Positions 3,249 through 59,735 of a stretch of 64,000 nucleotides of DNA are shown one piece after another. Within the stretch, counting starts at the first letter, position 1. Each line of letters begins with the position of its first letter. The notes below the pieces were generated by a model. The model was not told where the DNA came from. It did not search any database and saw nothing but the letters and a program-made list of their open reading frames with translations. A program made the translations under genes and the position numbers. Source of the stretch: Candidatus Aquivivens invisus (lineage in GTDB: Bacteria > Omnitrophota > Gorgyraeia > Aquiviventales > Aquiviventaceae); assembly GCA_001804415.1 (NCBI GenBank), contig MHGA01000006.1, positions 14,308 to 78,307 of the forward strand, given 5' to 3'.

Positions 3249-4814
3249 TCATCTAACAATCTGTGTAATCGAGGTCTGCTCTTTAGCTATATGCACTTCG
3301 AGAGGTTGCGCGGGTGCCAGGGTGCGCGCGACGAGCGGGCGCGTGGAGAGATCAATCAATCGCACCAGCGGCTTGGGCCAGCATCCCACGATCAACAGTG
3401 CTGCGATCAACACCACATACGGGAGGCGGGCAAACGGGGTGGCGGCGTCTTTCGCGTGGGCGAGGCTCTCGTTGGCGCCTCCGAAGAACACCCCGCGCAC
3501 CATCCGCAGCATGTACACCGAGGTGATCACGATCCCCAGCACCGCCAGCACCGCCTGCAGACGGTACCGATCCCACGACCCGAAGATCACCATCATCTCC
3601 GCCACGAAGTTCGCGAATCCCGGCAGGCCGCTGGACGCCATGGCGGCCATCACCCCGCAGGTGGCGATGAACGGCAGGCGCTTCGCCAGCCCTCCCAGCT
3701 CCGGCAGGGAGCGCGTGTGCGTCTCGTCGTAGATGTGGCCGACCAGCGCGAAGGCGAGCGCCGTCATCACCCCGTGCCCGAACATCAGCAACACCGCACC
3801 GTTGAGCGAGAGCGGAGTGAGCGCACAGATCCCCAGCAGGACGTAGCCCATGTGGCTGGAGGAGGAGTACCCGATGATGAACTTCAAATCTTTCTGGGCC
3901 ATGGCGACCAGCCCGCCGTAGATGATGTTCATCGTGCACAGCCCGGCGATCCACGGCAGCCACGCCTGCGCGCCGAGGGGCAGGAGGTTCAGCGGCAGGC
4001 GGATGATCGCGTAGGAACCCAGCTTCATCAGGACCGCCGCATGCAGCATGCTCACCGCCGACGGAGCCGCGGCGTGTCCGATAGGCGACCAGCTATGCAG
4101 CGGCCACAGCGGCGCGATGACCCCGAAGCCCACCGCCAGCAGGGGAAAGATCCACCACTGCAACCGGGCGTCCAGCGGATGGGCGCGCAGATGCTCCTCC
4201 AGCGCGACCACGTCAAAGGTCTGCGCCCCGCAACTGACGTACAGCCACAAGAGTCCGATCAACGCCAGCACCGCGCCGGAGGTGAGGTAAATCGTCAGCT
4301 TCATCGCGGCGTATTCTTTCGAGAACACCACCCGGCCGCCTTCCTTGGTATCGCTGCCCCAGACGCCGATGAGCGGATACATCGGGATCACCGCCATCTC
4401 GTAGAAGAAGTAGAAGAAGAACAGATCCAGCGACAGGAACACCCCGAACACGCCGGTGATGAGCAGCAGGTAGAAGAGATAGTATTCCTTCACGCGCTCC
4501 TTGATGGCGTACGAGATCAGCACGCCGGCGAAGGCGCAGATCGCATGCAGCAGCACCAGCACGGCGCTGATCCCATCCACCCCGAGGTGAAACCCGACGC
4601 CCAGCGCGGCGATCCACGGCACCTCCACGTGGAACTGATATCCACCGGAGGAGCGGTCGAAATTCGTCACCACCCACAGCGCGGTCAGCAGCGGGATGAA
4701 GGTCGCCCCCACCGCCACCCGCCGGATGAGGCGGATCTCTTGCCGGGGGAGCCACAGCAACAGCATCACGCCCATCGCCGGCGCCAGCAGGATCATCAGC
4801 AGCGGACTCATCAT
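3249..4814 (-). CDS. nuoM: NADH-quinone oxidoreductase subunit M (start ATGATGA overlapping nuoL stop)
   Basis: NuoM-type sequence; ATG at 4814 overlaps TGA of nuoL (4811-4813); the longer ORF to 4931 is rejected as extension. Confidence 0.85.
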   Translation of the reverse strand: MMSPLLMILLAPAMGVMLLLWLPRQEIRLIRRVAVGATFIPLLTALWVVTNFDRSSGGYQFHVEVPWIAALGVGFHLGVDGISAVLVLLHAICAFAGVLISYAIKERVKEYYLFYLLLITGVFGVFLSLDLFFFYFFYEMAVIPMYPLIGVWGSDTKEGGRVVFSKEYAAMKLTIYLTSGAVLALIGLLWLYVSCGAQTFDVVALEEHLRAHPLDARLQWWIFPLLAVGFGVIAPLWPLHSWSPIGHAAAPSAVSMLHAAVLMKLGSYAIIRLPLNLLPLGAQAWLPWIAGLCTMNIIYGGLVAMAQKDLKFIIGYSSSSHMGYVLLGICALTPLSLNGAVLLMFGHGVMTALAFALVGHIYDETHTRSLPELGGLAKRLPFIATCGVMAAMASSGLPGFANFVAEMMVIFGSWDRYRLQAVLAVLGIVITSVYMLRMVRGVFFGGANESLAHAKDAATPFARLPYVVLIAALLIVGCWPKPLVRLIDLSTRPLVARTLAPAQPLEVHIAKEQTSITQIVR

Positions 4815-6760
4815 GGATGGTTCGCCAGATACAGCAACGCGACGACTCCCACAAAAAACACCAACACGTACTGCTGCACCTTCCCGGTTTGGCACAAGCG
4901 CAGCAACCGGCCGGCCGTCTTGGTCGTCCACGCCGTGCCGTTGACCGCCAAGCCGATAATGACGAACCGCTCAAACAGCGCGCAGGCGGAGGCGATGAGG
5001 CGCTGCTGAATCCGATCCACATACCAGGCATACGCGTCGTCGATACGGTAGTGCCGAAGGAGCAGCCGGTAGACCGGGCCGAACGTCTGCGCAATCTTCG
5101 ACGGTGAGATTGAGCGCGTGCCGTAGATCAACCATGCCAGCCCGACGCCGATGGCCACCACCACCAGGGAGGTCCCGGCGATGCCCCAATGCAGCTCGGC
5201 CGCCTGCTCACCCAGAAACGCCGGGATGCCGAGGTAACCGCCGACGATGGACAGCGCCGCCAGCACCGCCAGCGGAACGAGCATGATCGTCGGAGACTCG
5301 TGCGGATGCAATCCGTGGGCGGGCGACCGAGCCGGCACCATCCCTGCTGGCGAGGAAGTGCCGTCAGCCGCAGGGCTGACGGCCTTGCCCACAAACGCCA
5401 CACACCACACCCGCGCCGTGTAGAACGCGGTGAAACCCGCGGTCACCGTCCCCAACCAGTAGAGCGAGGCGTTGTGCTCATGGGCGAGCGCGAGGATGGC
5501 ATCCTTGCTGAAAAAACCGCTCAAGCCCGGCGCGCCGCACAACGCCAGCGCGCCGACGAAAAACGAGAGCGACGTCCATCGCATCGACGTCCACAGTCCC
5601 CCCAGCTCCCAGATGTTCTGCCGGTGGGTGCCGTGGATGACGCTGCCGGCGCTGAGGAACAGCAGCGCCTTGAAAAACGCGTGCGTGGTGAGGTGATACA
5701 TGCCCGCGCCCGCCCCGCCCAACCCCACCGCCATCACCATGTAGCCAAGCTGGCTCAGCGTCGAGTACGCGAGGATGCGCTTCAGGTCCGATTCCACGAT
5801 GGCCAGGCACGCCGAGAGAAACGCCGTCGCGCCACCGACCCACGCGATCACGGTCAAGACGGTGCGCAACTCCTCGAACAGCCAGAAGGTCCGGCAGAGC
5901 ATGTAGACCCCGGCCGCCACCATCGTGGCCGCATGGATGAGCGCGGAGACCGACGTGGGCCCTTCCATCGCATCCGGCAGCCACACGTGCAGCGGAAACT
6001 GCGCCGACTTGCCCAGCACCCCGCAGAACAGCAACAGCCCGATCCCCGTCAGCGCCGTAGGGGACAGCCACCCCAGCTCCATCAGGTGCGGAAGCCGCTG
6101 GTACAGCGTCTGGAACTGCACGCTGCGCTCAGCGGCGATCGGGCTTGAGACGGCCCACAGCCAGACAATCCCCAGCAGGAAGCCGAAGTCCGCGACGCGG
6201 TTGACCATGAACGCTTTCTTGCCGGCCTCAGCGGCGGCGGGTTTCTCGTACCAGTGGCCGATGAGCGCGTAGGAGCAGAACCCCACTAGCTCCCAGCCGA
6301 TGAACAGCTCGATCCAGTTGGTCGCCAGGACGATCGCCAGCATGGAGAAGGCGAACAGCGACAGCAGTCCGAAGTACCGGCTGTAGCCGGCGTCATCCGC
6401 CATGTAGCCGATGGAATAGAGGAAGATGGCACTGCCCACGCCGGTGACCACCAGCGACATGAGCAGGGAGAGCCGGTCGATGAGCACCCCGAACGGAATG
6501 GAGAAGTCCGGCAGCCCGATCCATGTCACCGATAGCTCCAGCGGCAGGGTCAGGCCTCCGCTGCGCGCTTGGACGAACAGCGACAGCGCGCAGGCAAACG
6601 AGAGCAGCAGCCCCCCATTGGCGAGCAGCGCGCTCAACCGCCGTCGGGAGATCCCGAAGAGGAGAATCCCCAGCGCCGAGACGAGCGGGCTGAGCAACAG
6701 GGTCCACGCGCAGAAAACGGCTGAAGGCTGAAGGCTGAAGGCTGAAGGCTGGGCTACCAT
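4811..6760 (-). CDS. nuoL: NADH-quinone oxidoreductase subunit L; 12-aa N-terminal extension encoded by a (GGCTGAA)n heptamer tract
   Basis: 649-aa antiporter-like subunit with long C-terminal helix region; ATG 6760 overlaps nuoK stop. Confidence 0.85.
   Translation of the reverse strand: MVAQPSAFSLQPSAVFCAWTLLLSPLVSALGILLFGISRRRLSALLANGGLLLSFACALSLFVQARSGGLTLPLELSVTWIGLPDFSIPFGVLIDRLSLLMSLVVTGVGSAIFLYSIGYMADDAGYSRYFGLLSLFAFSMLAIVLATNWIELFIGWELVGFCSYALIGHWYEKPAAAEAGKKAFMVNRVADFGFLLGIVWLWAVSSPIAAERSVQFQTLYQRLPHLMELGWLSPTALTGIGLLLFCGVLGKSAQFPLHVWLPDAMEGPTSVSALIHAATMVAAGVYMLCRTFWLFEELRTVLTVIAWVGGATAFLSACLAIVESDLKRILAYSTLSQLGYMVMAVGLGGAGAGMYHLTTHAFFKALLFLSAGSVIHGTHRQNIWELGGLWTSMRWTSLSFFVGALALCGAPGLSGFFSKDAILALAHEHNASLYWLGTVTAGFTAFYTARVWCVAFVGKAVSPAADGTSSPAGMVPARSPAHGLHPHESPTIMLVPLAVLAALSIVGGYLGIPAFLGEQAAELHWGIAGTSLVVVAIGVGLAWLIYGTRSISPSKIAQTFGPVYRLLLRHYRIDDAYAWYVDRIQQRLIASACALFERFVIIGLAVNGTAWTTKTAGRLLRLCQTGKVQQYVLVFFVGVVALLYLANHP
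6718..6752. repeat. Tandem heptanucleotide repeat (GGCTGAA)x4.7 inside the first 15 codons of nuoL
   Basis: ggctgaa repeated 4 times perfectly + ggctggg; read directly. Confidence 0.95.
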
Positions 6761-8783: not shown

Positions 8784-10403
8784 ATGCCCGAGACGCTCCA
8801 CACCACCGCCTTGACCCCTGAGCCCATCGTCAGGCTCGAGAACTATTTCCGCGAGCCGTACAACCTCGCCGTCGCGGCGGCGCGCACCTGTTACTCCTCC
8901 CAGGTGATCTCGACGGACGATGTGGACCGCGATGACCAAACCCGCGCCCAGCGGGACCGCATCGCGGAGAGCATCTACAAGGCCGGCCATCACACGACGA
9001 TCCAGCACCCCACCTTCCAGTTCGTCCTTGAGCGCGTGTCACGCCACTGCATTTGGTCCTTCCTCCACGCGCATCCTTTTTATAACAGCGAGCAGGTTTC
9101 ACAACGTTTTGTCGAGGTGAAGCCGGAGCATTTTACGATCCCGCCGCTGGAAGACGCCGCCCGGTCGATCTACCTCAAGGCGGTGCGCGCGCAGATGGAC
9201 GCCTACCACCGCCTGTGCGAGCTGGTGGAGCCGACGGTCAACCTGGAGTATCGGCGGATCTTTCCCCATCGCGAGCTGTCGGACAAACGCTGGAAGGGCG
9301 CCATCAAGAAACGCTGCCAGGAGGTGGCGAGGTACGTCTTGCCGGTGGCGACCCACGCGCACCTCTACCACACGATCAGCGGGATTACCCTGCACCGCTA
9401 CTGGCGGCTATGCCGGCAGTTTGACGTCCCGCTGGAGCAGCGCTTCGTCGTGCAGCGAATGGTCGAGGAGGTGTGCCGGGTCGATCCGAAGTTCATGGCC
9501 CTGGCGGAGGATCCGATGCCGATGGAGGAGACGCTGGAGTATCGCGTGTTCCAGGCTCTCCACGCCGGATCCCCGGCCCGCCTCGATGGCCAGAGTCCGG
9601 GGCGGGCAACCAACGGGACGGGCCGAGGCTTTGTCGATGAATTCGACCGGGAGCTCGGTGCGCACACCTCCAGGCTGGTGGATTACAAGGCGCGCGCGCA
9701 AGAGACCCTGGCGCAGGCGGTGCGATCGGTGCTCGGCGTACCCAGAGGACAGCTGTCAGATCTGCAGGCGATCGATCTGGTGCTCAATCCGGCGCGCAAC
9801 CCCTACCTGTCCGACACGCTGACCCTCACGACGGTCAGCAAGCTCTCCCGCGCCCTGGTGCATCCCCACTTTACATTTAAGAAGAAACTGTCGCACACCG
9901 CTGATTCGCAGGACCAGCGCCACCGCATGGTGCCCGCCTCGCGGCCGATCCTGCTGACCCACTTCGTCGCGGATCGACCGGACTACATCACCCCCGTCCT
10001 GATTCGCGCCACCCCGGAAGCTCTCGCCTGCTACGGCGAGGTGATGACCACGGTCTGGCGCGCCATCACCCGGTTGCTCGAGCTAGGGGTGAGCCACGAA
10101 TTCGCGCTGTACCTGCTCCCCAATGCGTTTCCGATCCGGTTTGAAGAGTCGGGCGATTTGCTGCACTTCCATCACAAGTGGGTGCAGCGGCTCTGCTACA
10201 CGGCGCAGGAGGAAATCTGGAACAGCTGTCGCGAAGAGGTGTTGCAGGTGACCGAGCGTTTTCCGGAGATCGGCCGGTACCTCCAAGCGCCGTGCTGGCC
10301 GAGGTCGCAGGCAGGGATTCGTCCGTACTGTCCCGAAGGCGACCGCTTCTGCGGCGTCGCCGTGTGGAAGCTGCCGGTCGAAGAGTACCAACGGCTCATT
10401 TGA
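8784..10403 (+). CDS. Tandem-domain ThyX-like (flavin-dependent thymidylate synthase family) protein, 539 aa
   Basis: Two ThyX-like halves; the first has GHHTTIQH...SRHCIWSFLHAHPF..SQRF (RHR replaced by HAH), the second retains RHRMVPAS. Confidence 0.55.
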   Translation: MPETLHTTALTPEPIVRLENYFREPYNLAVAAARTCYSSQVISTDDVDRDDQTRAQRDRIAESIYKAGHHTTIQHPTFQFVLERVSRHCIWSFLHAHPFYNSEQVSQRFVEVKPEHFTIPPLEDAARSIYLKAVRAQMDAYHRLCELVEPTVNLEYRRIFPHRELSDKRWKGAIKKRCQEVARYVLPVATHAHLYHTISGITLHRYWRLCRQFDVPLEQRFVVQRMVEEVCRVDPKFMALAEDPMPMEETLEYRVFQALHAGSPARLDGQSPGRATNGTGRGFVDEFDRELGAHTSRLVDYKARAQETLAQAVRSVLGVPRGQLSDLQAIDLVLNPARNPYLSDTLTLTTVSKLSRALVHPHFTFKKKLSHTADSQDQRHRMVPASRPILLTHFVADRPDYITPVLIRATPEALACYGEVMTTVWRAITRLLELGVSHEFALYLLPNAFPIRFEESGDLLHFHHKWVQRLCYTAQEEIWNSCREEVLQVTERFPEIGRYLQAPCWPRSQAGIRPYCPEGDRFCGVAVWKLPVEEYQRLI

Positions 10404-10411
10404 AGCAAGCG

Positions 10412-10460
10412 ACAAGGGACAAGGGACAAGGGACAAGGGACAAGGGACAAGGGACAAGGA
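10412..10460. repeat. Tandem heptanucleotide repeat (ACAAGGG)x7 between thyX-like stop and cld-like start
   Basis: Seven consecutive 7-nt units, last one ACAAGGA. Confidence 0.95.
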
Positions 10461-10462
10461 AC

Positions 10463-11209
10463 ATGACCATGCCGATACCGGTCGAGGAAGCCAAGAGCCA
10501 CGCCCCCGCGGTTCAACGGGAGGCCGTGGCTCGGCAGATCGTGGGGTTCTCGTTCTACCGCGTGGATCCGGAGTGGAGGCGGCTGCCGGCTTCGACGAAG
10601 CGCAGGCAGGGCGGGGAGCTGGCCGGTGTCATCACGCGCTACGCCAAGCAGCTGATGGTGCTGACCTATTCGCTCGTCGGGTTGAAGCCCGACGTCGACT
10701 TCTTGATCTGGCGCGTGGGCAACCGGCTTGAGCAGCTGCAGGCGATGTCGGCGGCGGTTCGGCAGACGGCGATGGCCGGGTACCTGTCGATGCCGCACGC
10801 GTATCTGTCGATGACGAAACGGTCCACCTACGTGGATAAGCTCGATCCCGATCACGCGGATGCGCGGCGGTTCATCACGCCGTTTCACAGCAAGTACCTG
10901 TTCGTCTATCCCTTCGTGAAAACCCACGAATGGTATCAGCTCCCGTTCGAACAGCGCCAGGCGATGATGGACGAGCATATCGTCCTGGGGAACACGTACC
11001 CCTCGGTGCGGATCCACACGACCTACGGCTTCGGGCTGGATGATCACGAGTTCGTCCTCGCCTTTGAAACCGACCACCCTCAGGACTTCCTCGATCTCGT
11101 GATGGCGATGCGCGAGAGCAAGGCTCGCCCCTACACCCTGCGGGATACGCCGATCTTCACCTGTGTGGCCAAACCGTTTGATGAGATTCTCAATGAAATC
11201 GGCTGCTGA
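10463..11209 (+). CDS. Chlorite dismutase family protein (Cld-like/HemQ-like), cytoplasmic (no signal peptide)
   Basis: C-terminal half aligns with Nitrospira Cld (YxFVKTxEWYxLxxxxRxxMMxEH, GLDDxxF..FET); ATG right after the heptamer tract. Confidence 0.75.
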   Translation: MTMPIPVEEAKSHAPAVQREAVARQIVGFSFYRVDPEWRRLPASTKRRQGGELAGVITRYAKQLMVLTYSLVGLKPDVDFLIWRVGNRLEQLQAMSAAVRQTAMAGYLSMPHAYLSMTKRSTYVDKLDPDHADARRFITPFHSKYLFVYPFVKTHEWYQLPFEQRQAMMDEHIVLGNTYPSVRIHTTYGFGLDDHEFVLAFETDHPQDFLDLVMAMRESKARPYTLRDTPIFTCVAKPFDEILNEIGC

Positions 11210-16226: not shown

Positions 16227-16790
16227 ATGGAGAGAATGATGCGCATTGTAGTCGGGATGACGGGGGCGTCGGGGGCGGTCTTCGGGGTGGAGTTTCTGCG
16301 GCGATGTCAGGCGGAGAAATACCTGATTCTGACGAAGTGGGGGCGGTACGTGCTGAAAGAAGAAACCGGCCTGACCGAACACCATCTAGCCGAGCATGTC
16401 AAACGCAGCTTTTCAGACGACGATCTCTCCGCGCCGTTTTCCTCAGGGTCGACGCCGTTCGATGCGCTGGTGATCGTGCCCTGCTCCGCCTCGACGATGG
16501 CCAAGCTCGCTGTCGGGATTGCCGATACCCTGCTGACAAGGGCGGCGATGGTCGCTCTCAAAGAACGGCGAAAGCTGATCATCTGCCTTCGCGAGACGCC
16601 GTTGTCCACCATCCACTTGGAACAGGCGCACAAGCTCTCGCAGGCCGGCGCCATCGTGATGCCGATTTGCCCGCCGTTCTATCACCGCCCCCAGACGATC
16701 GACGAGATGGTGAGCCAGTTCACCGAGAAGGTCCTGAGTCTCCTCGGATTCGAAACCTCGCTTGCTTGGAAAGCCGAAGCCCTTGAGTAA
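16227..16790 (+). CDS. ubiX: Flavin prenyltransferase UbiX family (MqnL-like in futalosine route)
   Basis: Flavoprotein fold motifs GMTGASGAV, PCSASTMAKLAVGIADTLLTRAA. Confidence 0.85.
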   Translation: MERMMRIVVGMTGASGAVFGVEFLRRCQAEKYLILTKWGRYVLKEETGLTEHHLAEHVKRSFSDDDLSAPFSSGSTPFDALVIVPCSASTMAKLAVGIADTLLTRAAMVALKERRKLIICLRETPLSTIHLEQAHKLSQAGAIVMPICPPFYHRPQTIDEMVSQFTEKVLSLLGFETSLAWKAEALE

Positions 16791-18548
16791 ATGGCTGATT
16801 TGCAATCCTTCCTCTCCCTCTTAGAACGCGAGGACCAACTCGCCCGCATCCGGGTGGAGGTCGATCCGGAGCTCGAGATCACCGAGATCGCCACGCGCGT
16901 GGTCAAGGAACGGGGGCCGGCGCTGTTGTTCGAGCGGGTGAAAGGCTCGGCCATCCCTCTGGCGATTAACATCTTGGGGACTGAGCGGCGCATCGAGCTC
17001 GCGCTCGGTCGGCACCCGCAAGAGGTTGGGGCCTCGCTGAAGCGCTTGATGGAAGCCGCGATGCCGCCTCGGCCCAAGCGGTTGCTCGAGGAATGGCGCA
17101 CCGTTGGCCGGGTGCTGTCGATGCCGCCCAGGCGGGTGCGTCGCGCGGCGTGCCACGACGTGGAAGAACCGCCCGACCTGGGGAAGCTGCCCATCATGAA
17201 ATGCTGGCCGAACGACGCGGGGCGGTTCATCACCTGCGGGATGGTGCTGACGCATGATCCCAAGACGGAGGTCCGGAACCTTGGCATCTACCGGATGCAG
17301 GTGGTCGGAGGCGATCAGGTGCTCATGCACTGGCAGATCCAGAAGGGCGGAGGATTCCACTATTGGAAAGCCGAGCAGCAGGGCAAGGCGCTGGCGGTCT
17401 CGGTCATCATCGGCGCAGATCCTCTCCTTTATATCGCTTCGGTCGCTCCGCTGCCTGAAGGGATTGACGAGCTGGCGTTCGCCGGATTTCTGGGAGGCCG
17501 GCGCATCCCGCTGGTGCATGGGAAGGCCACACCGACCGTCGCTCCCGCCGAGGCGGAGATCGTGCTGGAAGGTGTGGTGCCGCCTGATGAGCGCCTGCCC
17601 GAAGGGCCGTTCGGGGACCATTTCGGCCACTACTCCCATCCCGCGCCGTTTCCCGTGATGTGGGTTCAGACCATGACGCGCCGCGCCAAGCCGATTTATC
17701 TCTCGGCGGTCGTGGGCAAACCCCCTCAAGAGGACCGGTATATCGGCGACGCGGTGCAGGAGATGCTGCTGCCGATGATCCGGTTGATCCATCCGGAGCT
17801 GAAGGACCTGTGGGCCTATTACGAGGCCGGGTTTCACAGCCTGGCGGTGGCGGCGGTTGAGGAGCGGTACGGCAAGGAAGGGATGAAGACCGCCCTGGGG
17901 CTGCTGGGAACCGGGCAGATGAGCCTCACCAAGTGCCTCATCCTGGTGGATCCGGACGTCAACGCGCGCGACGCCAACGAAGTGCTGCGCGCCGTGCGCG
18001 ATCATTTCGATCCGGCGGAGGACTTTCTCTTGCTCCCTGGTGTCCCTTTTGATACGCTAGATTTTACGAGCCTGACCCCCAATCTGGGCAGCAAGATGGT
18101 GCTCGATGCCACCCGCGACGGGAAGGCATCCCCTCCAGGGGTTCCTCCAGTTGATCTGGAGGCTGTCCGGTGTCTGCATCCACGGATCCAAGCTGCCCGC
18201 ATCATCGGGGGATGTCTGGTGGCGGTCCAGGTCGAGGGCGAAGGCCGCTCGGTGGTGGAGGCGCTCGTTCAGGCGGATGCGTTGCGCGCCGTCAAGCTGA
18301 TCGCCGCGGTCAGCGCCGACGTGGACCTGCGCGAGGGCGAAAGCCTGTTGTGGGGGATCTTCACGCGGTTTGATCCCGCCCGCGACGTCGTCTTCACCGA
18401 GGTGGAGCTCCACGGAGGCTGGCCCATCCACCGAGGCCGCCTCGGCATCGATGCCACCTTCAAGACCGGATACCCTGATCCGATCGTGATGGATCCGGCA
18501 GTCGTCACACGAGTCACCCAACGATGGCCTCACTACTTCAAGGCGTAG
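16791..18548 (+). CDS. ubiD: UbiD-family decarboxylase (MqnM-like in futalosine route)
   Basis: 585 aa, UbiD family conserved blocks; starts 1 nt after ubiX stop. Confidence 0.8.
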   Translation: MADLQSFLSLLEREDQLARIRVEVDPELEITEIATRVVKERGPALLFERVKGSAIPLAINILGTERRIELALGRHPQEVGASLKRLMEAAMPPRPKRLLEEWRTVGRVLSMPPRRVRRAACHDVEEPPDLGKLPIMKCWPNDAGRFITCGMVLTHDPKTEVRNLGIYRMQVVGGDQVLMHWQIQKGGGFHYWKAEQQGKALAVSVIIGADPLLYIASVAPLPEGIDELAFAGFLGGRRIPLVHGKATPTVAPAEAEIVLEGVVPPDERLPEGPFGDHFGHYSHPAPFPVMWVQTMTRRAKPIYLSAVVGKPPQEDRYIGDAVQEMLLPMIRLIHPELKDLWAYYEAGFHSLAVAAVEERYGKEGMKTALGLLGTGQMSLTKCLILVDPDVNARDANEVLRAVRDHFDPAEDFLLLPGVPFDTLDFTSLTPNLGSKMVLDATRDGKASPPGVPPVDLEAVRCLHPRIQAARIIGGCLVAVQVEGEGRSVVEALVQADALRAVKLIAAVSADVDLREGESLLWGIFTRFDPARDVVFTEVELHGGWPIHRGRLGIDATFKTGYPDPIVMDPAVVTRVTQRWPHYFKA

Positions 18549-18574
18549 CCGACCGCCTTCAGCGCCGCGCGCGG

Positions 18575-19702
18575 ATGTCGAGAGCAGAGGCGCTGAAGCT
18601 CTTTGAGGCACGCGATCTCATCGGCCTCGGGCAATTGGCGAACGAGGTCAAGCAAGCCACATGGGGCGATCGCGCCCACTTTGTGATCAACCGCCAGATC
18701 AACCCTACGAACGTCTGCGTCCTGTCCTGCCGGTTCTGCGACTTCGCGACCAAGCGGGGACGCCCTAACGCCTACGAGATGACGATCCAGGACGTCTTAG
18801 ATCGCCTCAGCCCGGAGCTGCGGGAAGTCCACATCGTGCAGGGGCTGCATCCGGACTGGACGTGGGATTTCTACCTGGAGATGCTCCGCGCGATCAAGAC
18901 GAGCTTCCCCCGGATGCAGATCAAAGCCTGGACGGCGGTTGAGATTGACTATTTCTCCAAGAAGTTTCGCCTCTCGGTCGAAGAGGTCCTGGTGCAGATG
19001 AAGGAGGCGGGGCTCTCCGCCTTGCCCGGCGGGGGCGCGGAGGTGTTTTCCGAACGGGTGCGCAAGGCGCTGTTTCCCTTTAAAATCGGCGCGCCGAGGT
19101 GGCTGGAGATTCACCGGATCGCGCATCAGCTGGGCATCCCGACCAACGCGACCTTGCTGTACGGCCACATCGAGACGCGCGAAGAACGCGTGGATCACCT
19201 CCTGAAGCTTCGCGAACTCCAGGATGACACCGGCGGCTTCATGAGCTTCATCCCGTTGGCGTATCAAGTCGGCAAGACGCGCGTGGTCGAGCGCCAGGCG
19301 TCGGCGATCGAGGACCTCAAGACGATGGCGATCTCCAGGCTGCTCCTGGACAACATCCCCCACATCAAAGCCTACTGGGTGACGATGGGTGAAGAGACGG
19401 CGTCGATCGCCCTGAACTTCGGGGCCGATGATCTCGACGGGACGATCGGGGAGGAGCGGATCATGCATGCCGCGGATGCCGCAAGCCCGATTCGGCAGAC
19501 CCGCGAGCGGCTGGTGGAACTCATCCGAGCCTCCGGATGCGTGCCGGTGGAACGCGATGCCCTCTATCACGAGGTCGCGGTGTGCGACCCTTCGACTCGC
19601 GCCACGGCCTCTGGCCGTGGGCTCGCTCAGGATTCCGCCCCACGGGCGCAGGAAGAGGTGCCACGGGCTCTGCCCGTGGGGCTCCACAATGGCCACCGGT
19701 AA
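18575..19702 (+). CDS. Radical SAM menaquinone biosynthesis enzyme, MqnC/MqnE family (paralog 1; alternative start 18524); about 45-aa C-terminal extension encoded by hairpin repeats
   Basis: NPTNVCVLSCRFCDFA cluster motif, CofG/CofH-like fold. Confidence 0.75.
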   Translation: MSRAEALKLFEARDLIGLGQLANEVKQATWGDRAHFVINRQINPTNVCVLSCRFCDFATKRGRPNAYEMTIQDVLDRLSPELREVHIVQGLHPDWTWDFYLEMLRAIKTSFPRMQIKAWTAVEIDYFSKKFRLSVEEVLVQMKEAGLSALPGGGAEVFSERVRKALFPFKIGAPRWLEIHRIAHQLGIPTNATLLYGHIETREERVDHLLKLRELQDDTGGFMSFIPLAYQVGKTRVVERQASAIEDLKTMAISRLLLDNIPHIKAYWVTMGEETASIALNFGADDLDGTIGEERIMHAADAASPIRQTRERLVELIRASGCVPVERDALYHEVAVCDPSTRATASGRGLAQDSAPRAQEEVPRALPVGLHNGHR

Positions 19703-19736
19703 AGTCAGAAGTCAAAAGTCAGAAGTCGGAAGTACA
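19702..19736. repeat. Tandem heptanucleotide repeat (AAGTCAG)x5 (imperfect) between mqnC/E paralog 1 and mqnA
   Basis: aagtcag aagtcaa aagtcag aagtcgg aagtaca, followed by CT-rich run. Confidence 0.9.
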
Positions 19737-19766
19737 CTTCCCTCTTCCCCCTTCGCTCTTCCCCCT

Positions 19767-20522
19767 TTGACGGTGGCCCGCATTCCGTATCTCAACTGCG
19801 CGCCGTTTTTTGCCGGCCTTCCGCTCAAGCCAGGATGGGAGGTGGTCGACGTTGCGCCCAGGCGTTTAGGCCAGATGGCTGAGGAGGGCAAGTTCTTGGC
19901 GGGCGTGATGTCGCTGGCGGATTACCTGCGGTTGCAGGATCGCTTCGAGCGGATCGGGCCGCTGGGGGTGGCGGTGCGGGGACGGGTGGGCAGCGCGCTG
20001 CTGTTTTCGCGCAAACCCCTTCGGCAGCTGGACGGCGCCTGCGTCGCGGTGACGGACGAAACGTCGACGACCGCCCTGTTGCTTCGCGTGATCCTGGAAC
20101 AGCGTTACCACCTGACGGTTCGACTCGCGCCGCACGCCCACCCGACCCAGCAGGATGCTGACGCGGTGCTGCTGATCGGCGATGAGGCCTTGCGGTTTGG
20201 CAGCGTCAACCGGCTCTATCCGTTTGAGATTGATGTCGCCTTTGAATGGTGGTTGTGGCAGCATCTGCCCTGCGTCTTCGCCGTGTGGGCGATCCGCGCG
20301 GACGCCGGCGCGAGCACCAAGCGGGAGGTGAGCGAAGCCCTCCAGCGCACCCTGGCGGTCAACCTGCGTCGCCTCGATGAGCTCGTCATCCAACCGGCTG
20401 CCTCCCTGCACGTTCCGGCCGAGGACCTCACGATGTATCTGAGCCGGTTCATCTATCGTCTCAGCGCCGAGGAGGAGCGCGCCATCCAGCGCTTCGCCCA
20501 ACTGTCCCAATCCATGGCATGA
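19767..20522 (+). CDS. mqnA: Chorismate dehydratase MqnA (start uncertain: TTG 19767/GTG 19773, or ATG 19689 if heptamer tract is translated)
   Basis: RIPYLNCAPF MqnA signature, PF02621-type fold. Confidence 0.75.
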   Translation: MTVARIPYLNCAPFFAGLPLKPGWEVVDVAPRRLGQMAEEGKFLAGVMSLADYLRLQDRFERIGPLGVAVRGRVGSALLFSRKPLRQLDGACVAVTDETSTTALLLRVILEQRYHLTVRLAPHAHPTQQDADAVLLIGDEALRFGSVNRLYPFEIDVAFEWWLWQHLPCVFAVWAIRADAGASTKREVSEALQRTLAVNLRRLDELVIQPAASLHVPAEDLTMYLSRFIYRLSAEEERAIQRFAQLSQSMA

Positions 20523-21604
20523 GCCCCGTCTGCTGCGACTCGCTCGAGGAGAAGGTGTTCGCCGGGGAGCGGCTGACGCGCGAGGAAGGCCGCTCCCTCT
20601 TGCAAGACGCCTCCCTCCTTGAGCTAGGTCAGCTCGCCAACTCCGTGCGCTCCCGCCACAATCCCGACCCCGCCGTGACGTTTGTGATCGACTCGAATCC
20701 GAACTACACGAATGTGTGCATCACCGACTGCGTCTTCTGCGCGTTCTACCGCAAGCCCGGCTCGAAGGACGGCTATGTCCTGACGGTGGACCAAGTCATG
20801 GAGAAGGTCCGTCGGGCCGTTGAGTTGGGGGCGACGACCGTCTTGCTGCAAGGAGGGCACAACCCGCAGATTCCCCTCAGCTATTACCTGGCGTTGGTCT
20901 CCGAAACCCGCCGCCGGTTTCCGCAGGTGACCCCGCATTTCTTCACCGCCTCGGAAGTGACGACGATGGCGCAGGTCTCCGGGCTGCCGATCGGCGATGT
21001 GCTCAGACAGCTCAAAGACGCGGGGCAGTCCACCTTGCCGGGCGGGGGCGCGGAGATCCTCTCCGATCGCATTCGGCGGAGGCTCAGTCCGAAGAAAGGC
21101 GGAGCCGAGGCGTGGTTATCGGTCCATCGCGAAGCGCACCGCCTCGGCTTCAAATCGACCGCGACCATGATGTTCGGTCACCTCGAGGACGACGACGATC
21201 TCCTCCAACACCTTGAGCACATCCGCGGGCTGCAAGATGAGACGAGAGGGTTCACCGCTTTTATCCCGTGGAGCTTCAAGCCCGGCAACACCCCGCTCGA
21301 GAAACCGATCCCGCATCACGCCGACCCAACCCGTTACCTTCGGATCATCGCGCTCTCGCGACTCTACCTCGACAACGTCCCGCACATCCAGGCTTCCTGG
21401 TTCTCTGAAGGCAAGAAGACCGGCCAGGTCGCTCTGCACTTCGGGGCCGACGATTTCGGAGGGACCTTGTTCGAGGAGAACGTGCACGCCGCCACCAACT
21501 TTATCAACACAACGAGCGTTGAGGACCTCGTCACCGTGATCCGTGAAGCGGGATTTCGGCCGGTTCAACGCACCACGTTGTACGAACGCATCAAGGAGTG
21601 GTAA
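20519..21604 (+). CDS. Radical SAM menaquinone biosynthesis enzyme, MqnC/MqnE family (paralog 2)
   Basis: NYTNVCITDCVFCAF motif; ATGA overlap with mqnA. Confidence 0.75.
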   Translation: MSPVCCDSLEEKVFAGERLTREEGRSLLQDASLLELGQLANSVRSRHNPDPAVTFVIDSNPNYTNVCITDCVFCAFYRKPGSKDGYVLTVDQVMEKVRRAVELGATTVLLQGGHNPQIPLSYYLALVSETRRRFPQVTPHFFTASEVTTMAQVSGLPIGDVLRQLKDAGQSTLPGGGAEILSDRIRRRLSPKKGGAEAWLSVHREAHRLGFKSTATMMFGHLEDDDDLLQHLEHIRGLQDETRGFTAFIPWSFKPGNTPLEKPIPHHADPTRYLRIIALSRLYLDNVPHIQASWFSEGKKTGQVALHFGADDFGGTLFEENVHAATNFINTTSVEDLVTVIREAGFRPVQRTTLYERIKEW

Positions 21605-33154: not shown

Positions 33155-33232
33155 CCGTTGTTTCCTCGGATGGCGGCCCGACCACCGACAACTCCTCTAA
33201 GAAGGAGCATGCGCTGCCTTCTTAGACCCTTC
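33134..33232 (-). terminator. Copy 1 of a repeated two-hairpin module ending (minus orientation) in GC hairpin plus U-run; downstream of ArsB/NhaD-family gene
   Basis: Hairpins ctctaagaagg/ccttcttagag and ccgccatccg/cggatggcgg, conserved linker GGTGGTCGGGCC. Confidence 0.6.
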
Positions 33233-34842: not shown

Positions 34843-34925
34843 CGCAAAATAAAAACCGCCATCTAGCAAACGCTAGGTGGCGGCCCGACCACTAGAAACT
34901 CCTCCGGGCGATATACCCGGACCCT
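34843..34925 (-). terminator. Copy 2 of the repeated two-hairpin/terminator module (downstream of mscS)
   Basis: GGAAGCGCAAAATAAAAACCGCCATC identical to copy 3; first hairpin replaced by ccggg/cccgg stem. Confidence 0.6.
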
Positions 34926-44023: not shown

Positions 44024-44120
44024 AGCGCAAAATAAAAACCGCCATCCAGCAATGCTAGATGGCGGCCCGACCACCGAACCTCCTCTAAGAAGGGGCACAA
44101 GACATCCTTCTTAGACCCTT
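44024..44120 (-). terminator. Copy 3 of the repeated two-hairpin/terminator module (downstream of APC permease)
   Basis: Minus orientation: GGGUCUAAGAAGG..CCUUCUUAGAGG-AGGUUCGGUGGUCGGGCC-GCCAUCUAGCAUUGCUGGAUGGCGG-UUUUUAUUUU. Confidence 0.65.
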
Positions 44121-44167: not shown

Positions 44168-45487
44168 TCACCCCACTCGCCGGCGGGAGAGCGCGTAAAA
44201 GGGTAGCGCTAGGACGAGGAGGCCGAAGCCGAAGAGCGCCTCACGCGGCTGCTTCACGCAGACGTCGAGGATGAAGCCGCACATCACCAAGGAGAACAGC
44301 AGCGGGGTCAGCGGATACCCCCAGGCGCGGTAGGGCCTTGGGCGCGTGGGATGCGCGCGCCGCAGGACGATCACCCCCAGCACCGCCATCACGAAGAACA
44401 CGGAGATGACGACCGTGGAGTAGGTCATGATCTGGTCAAACGTCTTGGTGAACACTAGCACCACGGCGATCGCCGCGTTGGTCCACAAGGCCAGGGCCGG
44501 CGTGTGATACGTCGGGTGCACGGCGCTCAACCATTCGAAGAGGGGATGATCCTTGCCCATCGCATACAGGATGCGCGCGCCGGTGAGGATGTAGCCGTTG
44601 AGCGCGCCGAACGCCGAGCAGGCTACCATGACGGCGATGAACGTCGCCCCCGGATTTCCCCACAGGCGTTCCAGCACATGCGAGGCGACCAGCGTGGTGG
44701 TCGGCAAGTCGGTCATGTCCACGCAGACCAAGTAGCTGATGTTCACCAGCAGATACAAGACAGTCACCAGCGCCAGGCCTCCGAGAATCGAACGCGGCAG
44801 CGTGCGGGACGGATCGCGGATTTCTTCGGCGACGTAGGCGGCCTCCGTCCATCCGCCGAAGGTCCACAGCACAAACACAAACGCCACGCCGGACGACTGG
44901 ATGACGGGCAGGGTCAGGGCGGGGAGGCGCCAGTCAACGGCCACGCCGCGCCCGCCGGCCAACGCAATCACGCCGGTTGCGATCACGCTGACCAACGCCC
45001 CGATCTTCAGCACGGTAAAAATGTTTTGGACCGCTGTGCCCCGCCGCACCCCCAAGACGTTGATGGCGGTCAGCAGCACAATCGAGCCGGCGGCGAGGCC
45101 TCGCAGCGCAACCGGCGACATCGGGAACAACCGCCCGAGGTACTCCGCGAACACAAAACCCAGGATGGCGATGGTGCCGGTTCGCTCGATGAACAGTTTC
45201 GTCCAGCCGAAGAGAAAGCCCCAGAACCGGCCGTAGCCTTGCGTGATGTAGACGTAGTCGCCCCCGCTCTGTGGAAACAGCGTGGACAATTCGGCGTAGC
45301 ACAACGCACCGCACAATGACACGAGTCCCCCGACGACCCAGAGCGCGAGGATCAGCGAGGGACTTGGGAGGTGCGTGGCGATTGAGCTGGCCGTGCGGAA
45401 GATCCCGACGCCGACGATGCAGCCCACCACCAGCATCGTCGCATCGAAGAGCCCCAGCGCCCTAATGAGGGAAGACGGCTTGCTCAT
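44168..45487 (-). CDS. APC-family amino acid permease (start ATG 45487; the GTG 45505 alternative lies inside the repeat)
   Basis: 12-TM APC family profile. Confidence 0.75.
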   Translation of the reverse strand: MSKPSSLIRALGLFDATMLVVGCIVGVGIFRTASSIATHLPSPSLILALWVVGGLVSLCGALCYAELSTLFPQSGGDYVYITQGYGRFWGFLFGWTKLFIERTGTIAILGFVFAEYLGRLFPMSPVALRGLAAGSIVLLTAINVLGVRRGTAVQNIFTVLKIGALVSVIATGVIALAGGRGVAVDWRLPALTLPVIQSSGVAFVFVLWTFGGWTEAAYVAEEIRDPSRTLPRSILGGLALVTVLYLLVNISYLVCVDMTDLPTTTLVASHVLERLWGNPGATFIAVMVACSAFGALNGYILTGARILYAMGKDHPLFEWLSAVHPTYHTPALALWTNAAIAVVLVFTKTFDQIMTYSTVVISVFFVMAVLGVIVLRRAHPTRPRPYRAWGYPLTPLLFSLVMCGFILDVCVKQPREALFGFGLLVLALPFYALSRRRVG

Positions 45488-45492
45488 AGCGG

Positions 45493-45559
45493 CGACAAGC
45501 GACACGCGACAAGCGACAAGAAGAGAATCATGTCACTTGTCCCTTGTCACTTGTCACTC
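45493..45559. repeat. Inverted arrays of heptamers: (CGACAAG)x4, 10-nt spacer, (CTTGTCA/TGTCACT)x4; long hairpin between M15 peptidase stop and permease start
   Basis: Read directly; right arm supplies the last codons and stop of the peptidase. Confidence 0.9.
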
Positions 45560-57348: not shown

Positions 57349-58221
57349 ATGAAACGGGTGTTGGTCGTCTACAAGAAAAGCGCCTATCAGCTCCACGTGG
57401 TGGAGCGGAAGGATCCGTGGCTGAGGCGGCTGCTGCGAGCGAGTCACCCCGATGCCCTCGACTGGCTCGCGGCCCACCGCGTGCAACAACGCACCCTCGA
57501 TGCCGTGGTGCGCAGCCTGCGCAGCCTCGGCGTGCGGGAGACCCTGGTCTATCGCGAGCGCCTTCGGCCCGCCACCGGCTACGATCTGGTGCTGAGTGTG
57601 GGAGGCGACGGGACGGTGCTGCAGGCCTCCCACTTCATGAAGGACACGCCGCTCCTGGGCGTGAACTCAGATCCGACGCGCAGTGAGGCCGTGTTCTGCG
57701 CGGCCACCGCCTCGGACGTCCATCGAGTCGTGCGGGACGCGTTGGAGGGCCGGCTGCCCGCGCTCTTGCTCTACCGCTTGGCCGTTGCGCTCAACGGCCG
57801 GCGGCTGGGTCCGTTAGCGCTCAATGACGTGCTGATCGCCCATGAGGATCCCGCCACGATGAGCCGCTATCGCCTGCGGCTCGGCGCCCGGTGTGAAGAT
57901 CACAAGAGTTCAGGATTGTGGGTGGCCACCGCCGCGGGCTCCAGCAGCGCGATGGCCGCGGCGGGAGGAAGGCGCCTGCCCTGGGGGGCCAAGCGGTTTC
58001 AGTACCGGCCTCGCGAGCTGTACCAGGGGCGCTTGACCCGTTGTCGCCTGACAGGCGGGCAGCTTTCGCCCCCACGGTGTCTTGAGTTGGTCTGGTTGAT
58101 GCGGGAGGGTGCGGTCTTTCTCGACGGGCCGCATCTCAAACACCGACTGCGATTCGGGGATCGGGTGACGGTGTCGCTCTCGCCGCAACATCCATTCCGC
58201 GTGCTGGGCTTACGCCGATGA
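57349..58221 (+). CDS. nadK: NAD kinase
   Basis: GGDGT motif, NAD kinase fold. Confidence 0.8.
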   Translation: MKRVLVVYKKSAYQLHVVERKDPWLRRLLRASHPDALDWLAAHRVQQRTLDAVVRSLRSLGVRETLVYRERLRPATGYDLVLSVGGDGTVLQASHFMKDTPLLGVNSDPTRSEAVFCAATASDVHRVVRDALEGRLPALLLYRLAVALNGRRLGPLALNDVLIAHEDPATMSRYRLRLGARCEDHKSSGLWVATAAGSSSAMAAAGGRRLPWGAKRFQYRPRELYQGRLTRCRLTGGQLSPPRCLELVWLMREGAVFLDGPHLKHRLRFGDRVTVSLSPQHPFRVLGLRR

Positions 58222-58228
58222 GACAGAG

Positions 58229-58336
58229 CGACAAGCGACAAGCGACAGGTAACAAGTCGAACAGGCCTACTCGAGGGCAGCTTCCTCTGTTGTGGTGTTG
58301 CCTTGTCGCTTGTACCTTGTCGCTTGTCCCTGTCCT
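58229..58336. repeat. Inverted arrays of heptamers (CGACAAG)x3-5 ... 37-nt spacer ... (CTTGTCG/CTTGTMC)x5 between nadK and memo-ammecr1
   Basis: Read directly; ATG 58218 (overlapping nadK TGA) is in frame through the array with the downstream gene. Confidence 0.9.
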
Positions 58337-58367
58337 TGAGGTCACGGCGGAGCCGCGAAGCGCCCGC

Positions 58368-59735
58368 GTGGCCGGGGCGTTCTATCCCGATGACCCTGCC
58401 GTCTTGCGCGCGACGATTGAGCAGCTCCTCGCGGGCCACGACGGCGCACCGGCATCGCCCGACAAGCCCCGCATACTCATCAGCCCCCACGCCGGCTACC
58501 CCTATGCGGGGTCAGTGGCCTCCCGCGCCTTCCACGAGGTCCAGGGGCGTGCCTATGATGGAGTCGTCGTCGTGGGCTTCACACACCGCTTGAACTTCGA
58601 GGGTACCTCCGTCGAGACCCGCGACGCCTACCACACGCCGCTGGGTCCCATCCCCGTCGACACGGAGGCCGTGGAGTTCCTGCAGGCGCAACCCGGCATC
58701 ACGCACGTCGAGGAGGCGCATGAGGCCGACGAGCACTCGATGGAGGTGATGCTGCCGTTCTTGCAGGTTGCCTTAGGCGAGTTCCGGGTGGTCCCGATGC
58801 TGATGGGCCGCCATGATTTCTCAGACGCCCAGGAACTGGCCGCGGCCCTGGCGCAGTTGGCGCAGCACGGCGAGTATCTGTTCGTGTTCAGCACCGACCT
58901 CTCCCACTACCATCCGTACGACGAGGCGAAACGGCTCGATGACCAGACCGTCAACCTCATCCTGCGCGAAACCGCGGGGGCGGTTGATCGGCTCTTCTCC
59001 CAGGGCCACCTGGAGGCGTGCGGTCGGGGGCCGGTGGTCGCCGGGTTGCTGCTCGCCCAACGGTTCGGCTATCTGGAGCGTCGGTTGCTCCTCTACGCGA
59101 ATTCGGGCGATACGACGGGTGAGGCGAGTCGCGGGGTCGTGGGGTATGCCGCCATCGGGATGTATCCGCCGAAGACGTCCGCGTCGGTGGAGACGGTGTC
59201 CCGCGACGCGGGGATGGCGCTGGTGCGCGCGGCCCGGCAGGTCATCACCGCGAAACTTCAACCCACCCCCTCGACCGAGGCCGTTGCGCTGGACGTGTTT
59301 CCTGAGCTGCAGCAAGCGCGCGGCATGTTCGTGACGCTGCGCAAGCACGGGGAGTTGCGCGGCTGCATCGGCCGCATCGAGACAGACGAGCCGATGGCCT
59401 CGCTGCTGCCGACCGTCTCGGTCGAAGCGGCGCTGGCGGATACGCGCTTCCTGCCTGTGACTGCGGAGGAGCTGGACGACATCACCGTCGAAGTCTCCGT
59501 CCTGAGCCCGCCGGCACCGGTCAGCTTCCAAGACATCGTCGCCGGGCGTGACGGGGTGGTGCTGCGGAAGGACGGCCGCAGCGGGGTGTTCCTGCCGCAG
59601 GTCTGGACAGAGAGCGGCTGGACGAGGCTGGAATTCTTACGCGAGCTGGCCCACCAGAAGGCCGGGCTCCAGCCGGATGCCTGGCAATCCGCGCAGCTGT
59701 TCACCTTCCAGGATCAGGTGTTTGAAGAACACTGA
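58368..59735 (+). CDS. Fused MEMO1-like (AmmeMemoRadiSam protein B-type) and AMMECR1 (protein A-type) protein; GTG start 58368, alternative ATG 58218
   Basis: N-terminal VAGAFYP...ISPHAGYPYAGSVASRAF (MEMO), C-terminal FVTLRKHGELRGCIGRIE (AMMECR1). Confidence 0.7.
   Translation: MAGAFYPDDPAVLRATIEQLLAGHDGAPASPDKPRILISPHAGYPYAGSVASRAFHEVQGRAYDGVVVVGFTHRLNFEGTSVETRDAYHTPLGPIPVDTEAVEFLQAQPGITHVEEAHEADEHSMEVMLPFLQVALGEFRVVPMLMGRHDFSDAQELAAALAQLAQHGEYLFVFSTDLSHYHPYDEAKRLDDQTVNLILRETAGAVDRLFSQGHLEACGRGPVVAGLLLAQRFGYLERRLLLYANSGDTTGEASRGVVGYAAIGMYPPKTSASVETVSRDAGMALVRAARQVITAKLQPTPSTEAVALDVFPELQQARGMFVTLRKHGELRGCIGRIETDEPMASLLPTVSVEAALADTRFLPVTAEELDDITVEVSVLSPPAPVSFQDIVAGRDGVVLRKDGRSGVFLPQVWTESGWTRLEFLRELAHQKAGLQPDAWQSAQLFTFQDQVFEEH

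Follow-up and report, generated by a model that had tools for sequence, protein, structure and literature searches.

Heptanucleotide arrays probably kept in frame in a translated leader of mqnA in Candidatus Aquivivens invisus (Omnitrophota)

In a 64,000-nt stretch of the genome of Candidatus Aquivivens invisus (phylum Omnitrophota; GenBank assembly GCA_001804415.1, contig MHGA01000006.1, positions 14,308 to 78,307; hereafter the window), two arrays of 7-nt tandem repeats stand between the end of an MqnC/MqnE-type radical-SAM gene and the conserved body of the menaquinone gene mqnA. We consider it probable that these arrays are heptanucleotide simple-sequence repeats kept in frame within a translated N-terminal leader of MqnA, that they form part of a lineage-wide family of similar arrays, and that they are not a length-variable switch. 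Repeats with a non-triplet unit are usually regarded either as filler between genes or, in dispensable genes, as frameshift switches. In the present case the length is kept across populations and species, which raises the question of what keeps frameshift-prone tracts stable and conserved within essential genes.

Coordinates refer to the whole 64-kb window (G+C 61–67%) and to its + strand unless marked (−); those preceded by a locus number refer to that locus. Tandem arrays in the window were called with Tandem Repeats Finder (TRF), gene identities were taken from Pfam and RNA families from Rfam 15 at the gathering threshold, and the MqnA protein was modelled with AlphaFold2. RNA folding of leaders was scored as z against shuffles (200 for the mqnA leader). 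Related contigs (L001–L041) served as the comparison set, among them L013, which is identical to the window. Near-identical groundwater metagenome-assembled genomes (MAGs) carry exact matches to window proteins.

The mqnA junction and its start codon

The gene mqnA lies in a tightly packed operon for the futalosine route to menaquinone. The operon runs from a UbiX-like gene (16227..16790) and a UbiD-like gene (16791..18548) through the radical-SAM gene (18524..19702; PF04055 and PF19288, with gene calls on L013) to mqnA itself (19689..20522, 277 aa, chorismate dehydratase family), and continues with a second radical-SAM gene of the MqnC/E type (20519..21604) and further genes. The family of MqnA, PF02621 (VitK2_biosynth), was matched on L013 and on P0001, a protein with one residue different. 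Read directly from the sequence, the ATG at 19689-19691 precedes the stop codon of the upstream gene, TAA 19700-19702, and the two genes share 14 nt. The frame of this ATG is open across both arrays and into ...MATGKVRSQKSEVGSTLPSSPFALPPLTVARIPYLN in the table of open reading frames (ORFs). A sequence-only reading of this stretch had singled out the same overlapping ATG and its in-frame path through repeats into MqnA, and both the sequence and the ORF table agree with it.

The first, purine-rich array (array 1, 19702..19733) was called with period 7, consensus AAGTCAG, 4.6 copies and 88% matches, and its translation is KVRSQKSEVGS. From 19702 its letters are AAGTCAG AAGTCAA AAGTCAG AAGTCGG AAGT, that is, four full units, two of which (units 2 and 4) carry one substitution each, and a 4-nt partial unit. 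The sequence-only reading had counted five 7-nt units: the heptamer tract stands, and the count is corrected to four full units plus the partial one. Its CT-rich run is likewise present, and turns out to be more than a run. Beginning three bases after array 1, the pyrimidine arm (array 2, 19737..19767) is itself a period-7 array called as (CTTCCCC/CTTCCCT)x4.4, with the letters CTTCCCT CTTCCCC CTTCGCT CTTCCCC and the translation LPSSPFALPP; it also fits period 14 (CTTCCCTCTTCCCC, 94%). Array 2 is partly complementary to array 1, with GAAG:CUUC every 7 nt. That array 2 is a decayed perfect complement of array 1, with only its TGA lost, is no more than a guess: all three TGA positions are replaced, and L002 is equally enriched in C although it has no stop to avoid.

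Comparison with relatives makes ATG 19689 the likely true start of mqnA. In L012 (MqnA 85% identical), which has no arrays, the start of mqnA is the homologous ATG, which likewise overlaps the stop of the upstream gene. Its junction reads ...GAAAATGGCCACCCGTGAAATGCTGGCTCGCATTCCC and shares ATGGCCACC with the window across that stop, and its product begins MATREMLARIPYLN. The same overlapping ATG is present in L040 (MqnA ~90% identical), followed in frame by a decayed, G-rich period-7 stretch, and L012 and L040 both have the window's ATGG(G/C)CACC start across the upstream stop. A start of mqnA that overlaps the upstream gene is found in most Omnitrophota, including more distant ones. Between the arrays and the conserved ARIPYLN, no in-frame ATG, GTG or TTG occurs in L001 (MqnA 73% identical, same AAGTCAG array) or in L002 and L014 (70%, AATGCGG-type arrays), so that the arrays of these three loci must be translated. 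Leader length is 87 nt in both the window and L001, against 90 nt in L002 and L014; length differences of 0 or 3 nt despite a 7-nt unit indicate selection on the reading frame. The first 51 nt of the window leader differ from those of L001 at seven positions, of which five are synonymous third-position changes (a hand count on the alignment, with small numbers). Read from ATG 19689, the leader of MqnA is expected to yield the tryptic peptide SEVGSTLPSSPFALPPLTVAR.

Two later in-frame codons, TTG 19767 and GTG 19773 (19767..19775), could also open the gene; L001, L002 and L014 lack such codons, and only the window has them. The 30 nt 5' of them are almost pure pyrimidine, and neither therefore has a Shine-Dalgarno (SD) sequence, as the sequence-only reading had noted. 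A start at TTG or GTG would also create the operon's sole intergenic gap, all other junctions overlapping or abutting (16790/16791, 18524/18548, 20519/20522, 21598/21604 and 22074/22077). Public start calls on identical genes differ for MqnA (215, 226, 249, 251, 277 or 348 aa), for NuoL (4811-6760; 628 or 649 aa) and for Memo-AMMECR1 (58218-59735; 455, 472 or 505 aa), because each gene caller handles the arrays in its own way. The shorter MqnA calls (215–251 aa) are gene-caller choices on identical DNA. For the 226-aa calls (10 contigs) we considered frameshift variants and ruled them out, their DNA being identical to the window. Public start annotations of MqnA, Memo and NuoL could be corrected.

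Heptamer arrays occupy operon junctions in this group of Omnitrophota, often as a purine-rich array with a more or less complementary pyrimidine-rich array behind it. In the account that we favour, they would grow by slipped-strand mispairing. At junctions with overlapping starts, such arrays would persist only if the insert keeps the downstream frame and introduces no stop codon, which matches the observed pattern. Translation of mqnA would start at ATG 19689, overlapping the last codons of the radical-SAM gene, most likely by termination-reinitiation coupling as at the operon's other overlapping junctions. The ribosome would then read both arrays and produce a disordered, low-complexity leader of ~27 residues ahead of the first β-strand (TVAR-IPYLN). 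The AlphaFold2 model of the 277-aa protein has a mean predicted local distance difference test (pLDDT) score of 91.2, falling to about 54 over the first 20 residues. Residues 1–27 form a low-confidence coil with no secondary structure and the first β-strand spans residues 28–31, and the leader is, as modelled, an appendage to the fold.

The window's mqnA leader folds as an interrupted hairpin (ΔG −36.3 kcal/mol, z −5.3; 0/200 shuffles as stable). In its predicted outer stem, GGCCACCG (19691..19698) pairs with CGGUGGCC (19770..19777), which covers GTG 19773 and begins 1 nt past TTG 19767-19769. This hairpin (ΔG −36 kcal/mol) may bury codons 2–4 together with the TTG/GTG region, in which case initiation of mqnA would need a ribosome finishing the upstream gene. 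Leader folds of relatives scored z −3.6 (L002) and −2.2 (L014), with different heptamers and a similar fold, and −0.2 (L001). A model with a conserved hairpin was dropped: RNAalifold on four array-bearing mqnA leaders gave −1.5 kcal/mol and nine pairs, with no common structure. Structure-enforced coupling is thus a weak step, since the hairpin is not conserved in L001 and has no consensus structure, and we infer that it would hold for the window genome only. In the Rfam 15 scan no family matched at 19689-19775.

Several observations weigh against this account. Both TTG 19767 and GTG 19773 are present in frame in the window, and public annotations of the same genome partly start MqnA at one or the other (251 and 249 aa, respectively). 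The AlphaFold2 model does not discriminate between start codons, a downstream start being equally tolerated, and the mqnA hairpin fails to recur in L001. Of the arrays in related loci, roughly half are plainly untranslated spacers, interrupted by stops in every frame (for example L008, L009 and the window site at 45492), so translation is not a general property of the family. Array 1 is identical between the window and L001 at 30/32 nt (94%) and array 2 at 28/34, against an identity of 72% for the whole mqnA body and of 51% for its third codon positions. By this comparison array 1 appears too conserved for a merely tolerated linker. A nucleotide-level function, or exchange between genomes, is left unaccounted for, and the favoured account gives no reason for conservation that appears well above the neutral expectation. 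Finally, an N-terminus of MqnA at ATG 19689 is a prediction from sequence.

Period-7 arrays at other junctions

Counted at a single threshold, the window alone contains six period-7 arrays and four of period 6, with none of periods 4, 5 or 8–12. The window plus 36 related loci (332 kb) contains 33 period-7 arrays against 1–16 for any other period from 4 to 13, and the number rises to ~40 in the 366 kb of the widened set, once more loci are added. The period-7 excess is not due to chance. The sequence-only reading had suggested that the recurrence of such tracts was no coincidence, and a family of period-7 arrays at gene junctions bears this out. Arrays occupy five junctions in the window, namely nuoK to nuoL, thyX to a chlorite-dismutase-family gene (cld), mqnC/E to mqnA, vanY to an amino-acid permease gene, and NAD kinase to Memo-AMMECR1. 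All five, and most sites in the related loci, are junctions between co-directional genes (Pfam). The arrays start ~0–18 nt past the upstream stop or contain it. A frequent layout is an array, a short spacer and a complementary array (an inverted pair), which fold into long stems. The purine-rich arm comes first in 11 of the 15 inverted pairs in the window and L001–L039, the reverse order being found in one (L017). Gene orientation does not explain this order, because it reads alike on both strands.

The same heptamer families occupy different gene junctions in different genomes. AATGCGG/ACTCCGC heptamers recur in L002 (1552-1616), L014 (1750-1813), L041 (1-50), L007 (3963-4030) and L032 (11313-11389), AAGTCAG in the window, L001 and L009, and GACAAGN at four window sites and in L037. 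TAGTCCA is found in L008 (10484-10515) and L039 (9956-10089), and CCTTCAG at nuoL in both the window and L037. At the mqnA junction, array type and MqnA similarity are mismatched. Among the closest mqnA relatives, L012 has no array, L040 a decayed one and L041 one of AATGCGG/CGGAGTT type, whereas the window's type is shared with a 73% relative (L001) and that of L041 with the 70% relatives. This pattern suggests that arrays are exchanged, or seeded anew, out of a common repertoire. No change of array copy number is seen within the species or relative to L001, while array type and length turn over between other relatives.

Among the junctions examined, eleven array clusters have an open frame all the way from a start codon ≤21 nt ahead of the array, and about nine are closed and followed by an ordinary start. 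Only in L032 is the ancestral ATG out of frame, and there an in-frame ATG is supplied inside the AATGCGG array (three-frame translation). On a conservative count of lineages, ~9/10 cases are in frame against ~1/3 expected (binomial P ~4e-4).

The layout at mqnA, an overlapping start followed by arrays in frame, had been likened to nuoL and Memo-AMMECR1 in the sequence-only reading. It does recur at both, and also at the thyX-cld junction. At nuoL (−), ATG 6760 overlaps the nuoK stop (AAATGGTAG), and a (CCTTCAG)x4.7 array (6719..6751, −; called by TRF as GGCTGAA) follows in frame between this conserved ATG and the conserved AWTLLLSPL. Nearly all NuoL homologues of Omnitrophota begin with 'MV' at an ATG overlapping the nuoK stop, and the linker before (C)AWTLLLxPL is variable (2–20 aa), several linkers being visibly repeat-derived. 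In L038, AAATGGTAG is followed in frame by (TCCACCC)x5; in L037, ATGGTC is followed in frame by the same CCTTCAG unit as in the window, at a length 6 nt off that of the window.

At Memo-AMMECR1, ATG 58218 overlaps the NAD-kinase stop (ATGA), and both arms of an inverted pair, (GACAAGC)n ... (SCTTGTC)n at 58222..58335 (arms 58222-58247 and 58301-58335), follow in frame in the 5' coding end. Arm 1, rich in purines, encodes RQSDKRQATGNKSNRPTRGQ, which resembles a charged n-region (net charge +5, mean hydropathy −2.5), and the complementary arm 2 encodes LPLLWCCLVACTLSLVPVL, which resembles a hydrophobic h-region (hydropathy +2.3). After arm 2 the sequence continues as EVTA↓EPRSARVAGAFYP, with a cleavage-like VTA↓EPR site matching homologues; in every close homologue of Memo, an N-terminal signal peptide is present whose end reads ...A↓EPR(T/S)AKVAGxFYP. 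From this match, the inverted pair at 58218-58345 is predicted to encode a complete signal peptide. The public 472-aa annotation of Memo begins within arm 2, and its product would be without the signal peptide. The leader is structured as RNA (z −4.7). At the Memo junction of L039 a different inverted pair is found, in which arm 1, (TAGTCCA)x5, is interrupted by stops in every frame, the loop contains the ATG and arm 2 encodes the hydrophobic core. Inverted arrays may thus offer a simple route to N-terminal extensions and export signals.

A (GACAAGG)x8.3 array (10406..10463) separates the thyX stop TGA 10401-10403 from ATG 10463 of the chlorite-dismutase-family gene. A TTG at 10400 overlaps the thyX stop (TTGA), and its frame runs through the array to ATG 10463. 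Read-through of this array is unnecessary, as ATG 10463 follows it. The single arrays at nuoL (z +1.9) and cld (z +1.2) are, if anything, less structured than shuffles.

The vanY-permease junction (−) carries an inverted pair of GACAAG type at 45492..45558 (45492-45520 and 45531-45558; fold z −7.5), ahead of the permease ATG at 45487. Arm 1 has TGA in all frames, including the vanY stop, and is therefore untranslated. In the hairpin loop, ATG 45531 opens a 15-codon upstream ORF (MILFLSLVACRLSPL) that runs through arm 2 and ends with a stop overlapping the permease ATG 45487 (ATGA). From its position, this small ORF resembles a relay that would couple translation across the hairpin.

Two contigs end within heptamer arrays. 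L037 ends at positions 1-91 in 13 AGCTTGT copies just past the thyX stop, where the window carries its GACAAGG array, and L041 ends at 1-27, also within an array. Heptamer arrays evidently break metagenome assemblies, and their true number is probably underestimated. In L007 (3963-4043) an inverted AATGCGG/ACTCCGC pair is read as a C-terminal extension of the upstream gene, whose stop overlaps the next ATG (CTGATGG); arrays can thus be absorbed at either gene end.

Alternative explanations

The arrays might instead form an untranslated intercistronic element, in which mqnA starts at TTG 19767 or GTG 19773, the arrays are a 65-nt RNA spacer (an mRNA-stabilising hairpin or a set of protein sites) and the upstream ATG is a relic. 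Many arrays of the family are indeed spacers directly before a start codon (window 45492-45558; L008 3095; L009 359-501, with an SD sequence), and the downstream starts are used by some public gene calls. The same explanation would accommodate the nucleotide-level conservation of array 1 and a window leader that folds far better than shuffles (z −5.3). We nevertheless regard it as unlikely. No SD sequence precedes the TTG/GTG region, which lies in or against the stem; L001, L002 and L014 have no start codon past their arrays; the frame is kept across lineages; and the untranslated spacer would leave a gap in an operon that has no other. The hairpin that would stabilise the mRNA is absent in L001 and has no consensus structure.

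A more speculative proposal, to which we give about the same low weight, is that heptamer-array hairpins, purine-rich arm first, are shared and possibly exchangeable between genomes and are actively maintained at operon junctions, where a lineage-specific factor would use them in cis to coordinate the translation of internal cistrons. New N-terminal peptides, complete signal peptides among them, would arise from this raw material as a by-product.

Slightly less probable still, the arrays could be both translated and functional in cis, a lineage-specific factor or an mRNA structure recognising the shared heptamer repertoire and tuning translation at internal operon junctions. Recurrence of the same heptamers at different junctions and genomes is consistent with such recognition, as are array conservation beyond the synonymous rate, the prevailing order of arms (11/15 inverted pairs, the reverse in 1) and an array type at the mqnA junction that is independent of MqnA similarity. 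Against it, no candidate factor has emerged, the heptamer families have no motif in common, the hairpin is not conserved in L001, and the closest relatives have no arrays (L012) or decayed ones (L040).

The sequence-only reading had proposed that the recurrent layout is a shared translational switch, and this part did not hold. Positions 19580-19800 are identical in five further assemblies from different samples, while in the surrounding 2–2.5 kb one of the five differs at four positions and another at one. The same MqnA leader peptide is called on 19 contigs, and the tract has the same length in L001 despite 27% divergence of the MqnA protein. Length differences between lineages are 3 or 6 nt, not 7. 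Set against the phase-variable opa genes of Neisseria (PMC3960869), the junction shares the layout of start codon, non-triplet repeat and gene body in frame, a layout that recurs here at several genes. The six assemblies show no tract-length polymorphism, the tract is not long and uninterrupted (4.6 units, 88%, two of the units interrupted), and the targets MqnA (PF02621), NuoL (PF00361/PF00662) and Memo-AMMECR1 are not dispensable or surface proteins. At the assembly level an on/off switch has no support. Opa-type phase variation, in which slipped-strand gain or loss of a 7-nt unit would shift the frame of ATG 19689 and turn MqnA, NuoL and Memo on or off, is accordingly very improbable, given a length that is invariant in all six assemblies despite nearby single-nucleotide differences, across the 19 contigs and at 73% protein identity, lineage differences that preserve the frame, and the cost of losing a menaquinone enzyme or a complex I subunit.

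Known heptanucleotide repeats and neighbouring features

Heptanucleotide simple-sequence repeats are over-represented in some bacteria, among them three Calothrix heptamers, GGGAATC and GGGGAYT in Xanthomonas and Nostoc, and TAACTGA in Beggiatoaceae (PMC4692102, PMC4679880). Long simple sequence repeats (LSSRs) with heptanucleotide units go back to Mrazek et al. 2007, whose work is summarised by PMC4679880 and PMC4692102. As far as those summaries go, heptanucleotide LSSRs and the short tandemly repeated repetitive sequences (STRRs) of Calothrix and Nostoc resemble the arrays described here. Both consist of a few to a dozen tandem 7-nt copies in excess of other periods, mostly intergenic, with several heptamers per genome and sometimes inverted pairs. 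The window arrays share with STRRs the head-to-tail 7-nt copies, the period-7 excess and the location at junctions. Going by the same summaries, they differ in that many are in frame within 5' coding regions, right after the upstream stop, in operons.

The TAACTGA repeats of Beggiatoaceae (MacGregor 2015, PMC4679880) are likewise found upstream of starts, often overlapping the upstream stop and rarely with an SD sequence, and the genes that follow them are of every kind, essential ones included. Unlike the arrays here, they consist of a single heptamer in 2–6 copies, with stops in all three frames, are untranslated in the forward direction and almost never form inverted pairs (PMC4679880). The arrays of Omnitrophota are built from diverse heptamers, are mostly stop-free and read in frame, and frequently form inverted pairs. 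By the definition in PMC4679880 the mqnA arrays do not belong with TAACTGA, their units being AAGTCAG and CTTCCCC and stop-free in the mqnA frame. The CTCTT repeats of Neisseria opa (PMC3960869) are alike in that a non-triplet repeat separates the ATG from the mature protein and supplies part of a leader or signal peptide, a situation also seen at Memo-AMMECR1. In contrast, opa tracts vary at ~1e-3 per generation and control surface proteins (PMC3960869), whereas the arrays here are fixed across assemblies and lie in housekeeping genes. In Xanthomonas and Nostoc, the GGGAATC and GGGGAYT repeats (Rehm et al. 2015, PMC4692102) differ in being G-rich and capable of forming G-quadruplexes, and their length varies extensively even among close relatives. 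At mqnA the array keeps its length and is not rich in G.

Repeats within the genes of Borg elements generally have unit lengths divisible by three. The unit here is 7 nt, so the frame is kept only through the total length. Tandem nucleotide repeats that add low-complexity or disordered segments to proteins are a feature in common with Borg elements (PMC9879509). Our literature search found no report of heptamer or simple-sequence repeats in Omnitrophota. New here, relative to known heptamer repeats, are the diverse, mostly stop-free units, the frequent inverted pairs, the in-frame location in 5' coding regions of housekeeping genes and one whole predicted signal peptide.

Two further features of the window were noted. 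Just ahead of the mqnA start, the C-terminal tail of the upstream radical-SAM gene contains a 34-codon in-frame insert (19585-19686) relative to L012 and L040. Within the insert lie two 19-nt palindromes of nearly the same sequence, CCACGGCCTCTGGCCGTGG (19602-19620) and CCACGGGCTCTGCCCGTGG (19661-19679). A search of the window for more copies of these palindromes (CCACGGNCTCTGNCCGTGG) and of GGGCTCGCTCAGGAT returned none, and a related 'DPSTR...LAQD/LRI' segment is found at the same site in L006 and L007. The only Rfam hits in the window are three nhaA-I matches (RF03057) on the − strand, at 33168-33229, 34875-34924 and 44057-44118, with scores of 42.5–42.9 bits, above the gathering score; one of them lies just downstream of the amino-acid permease gene.

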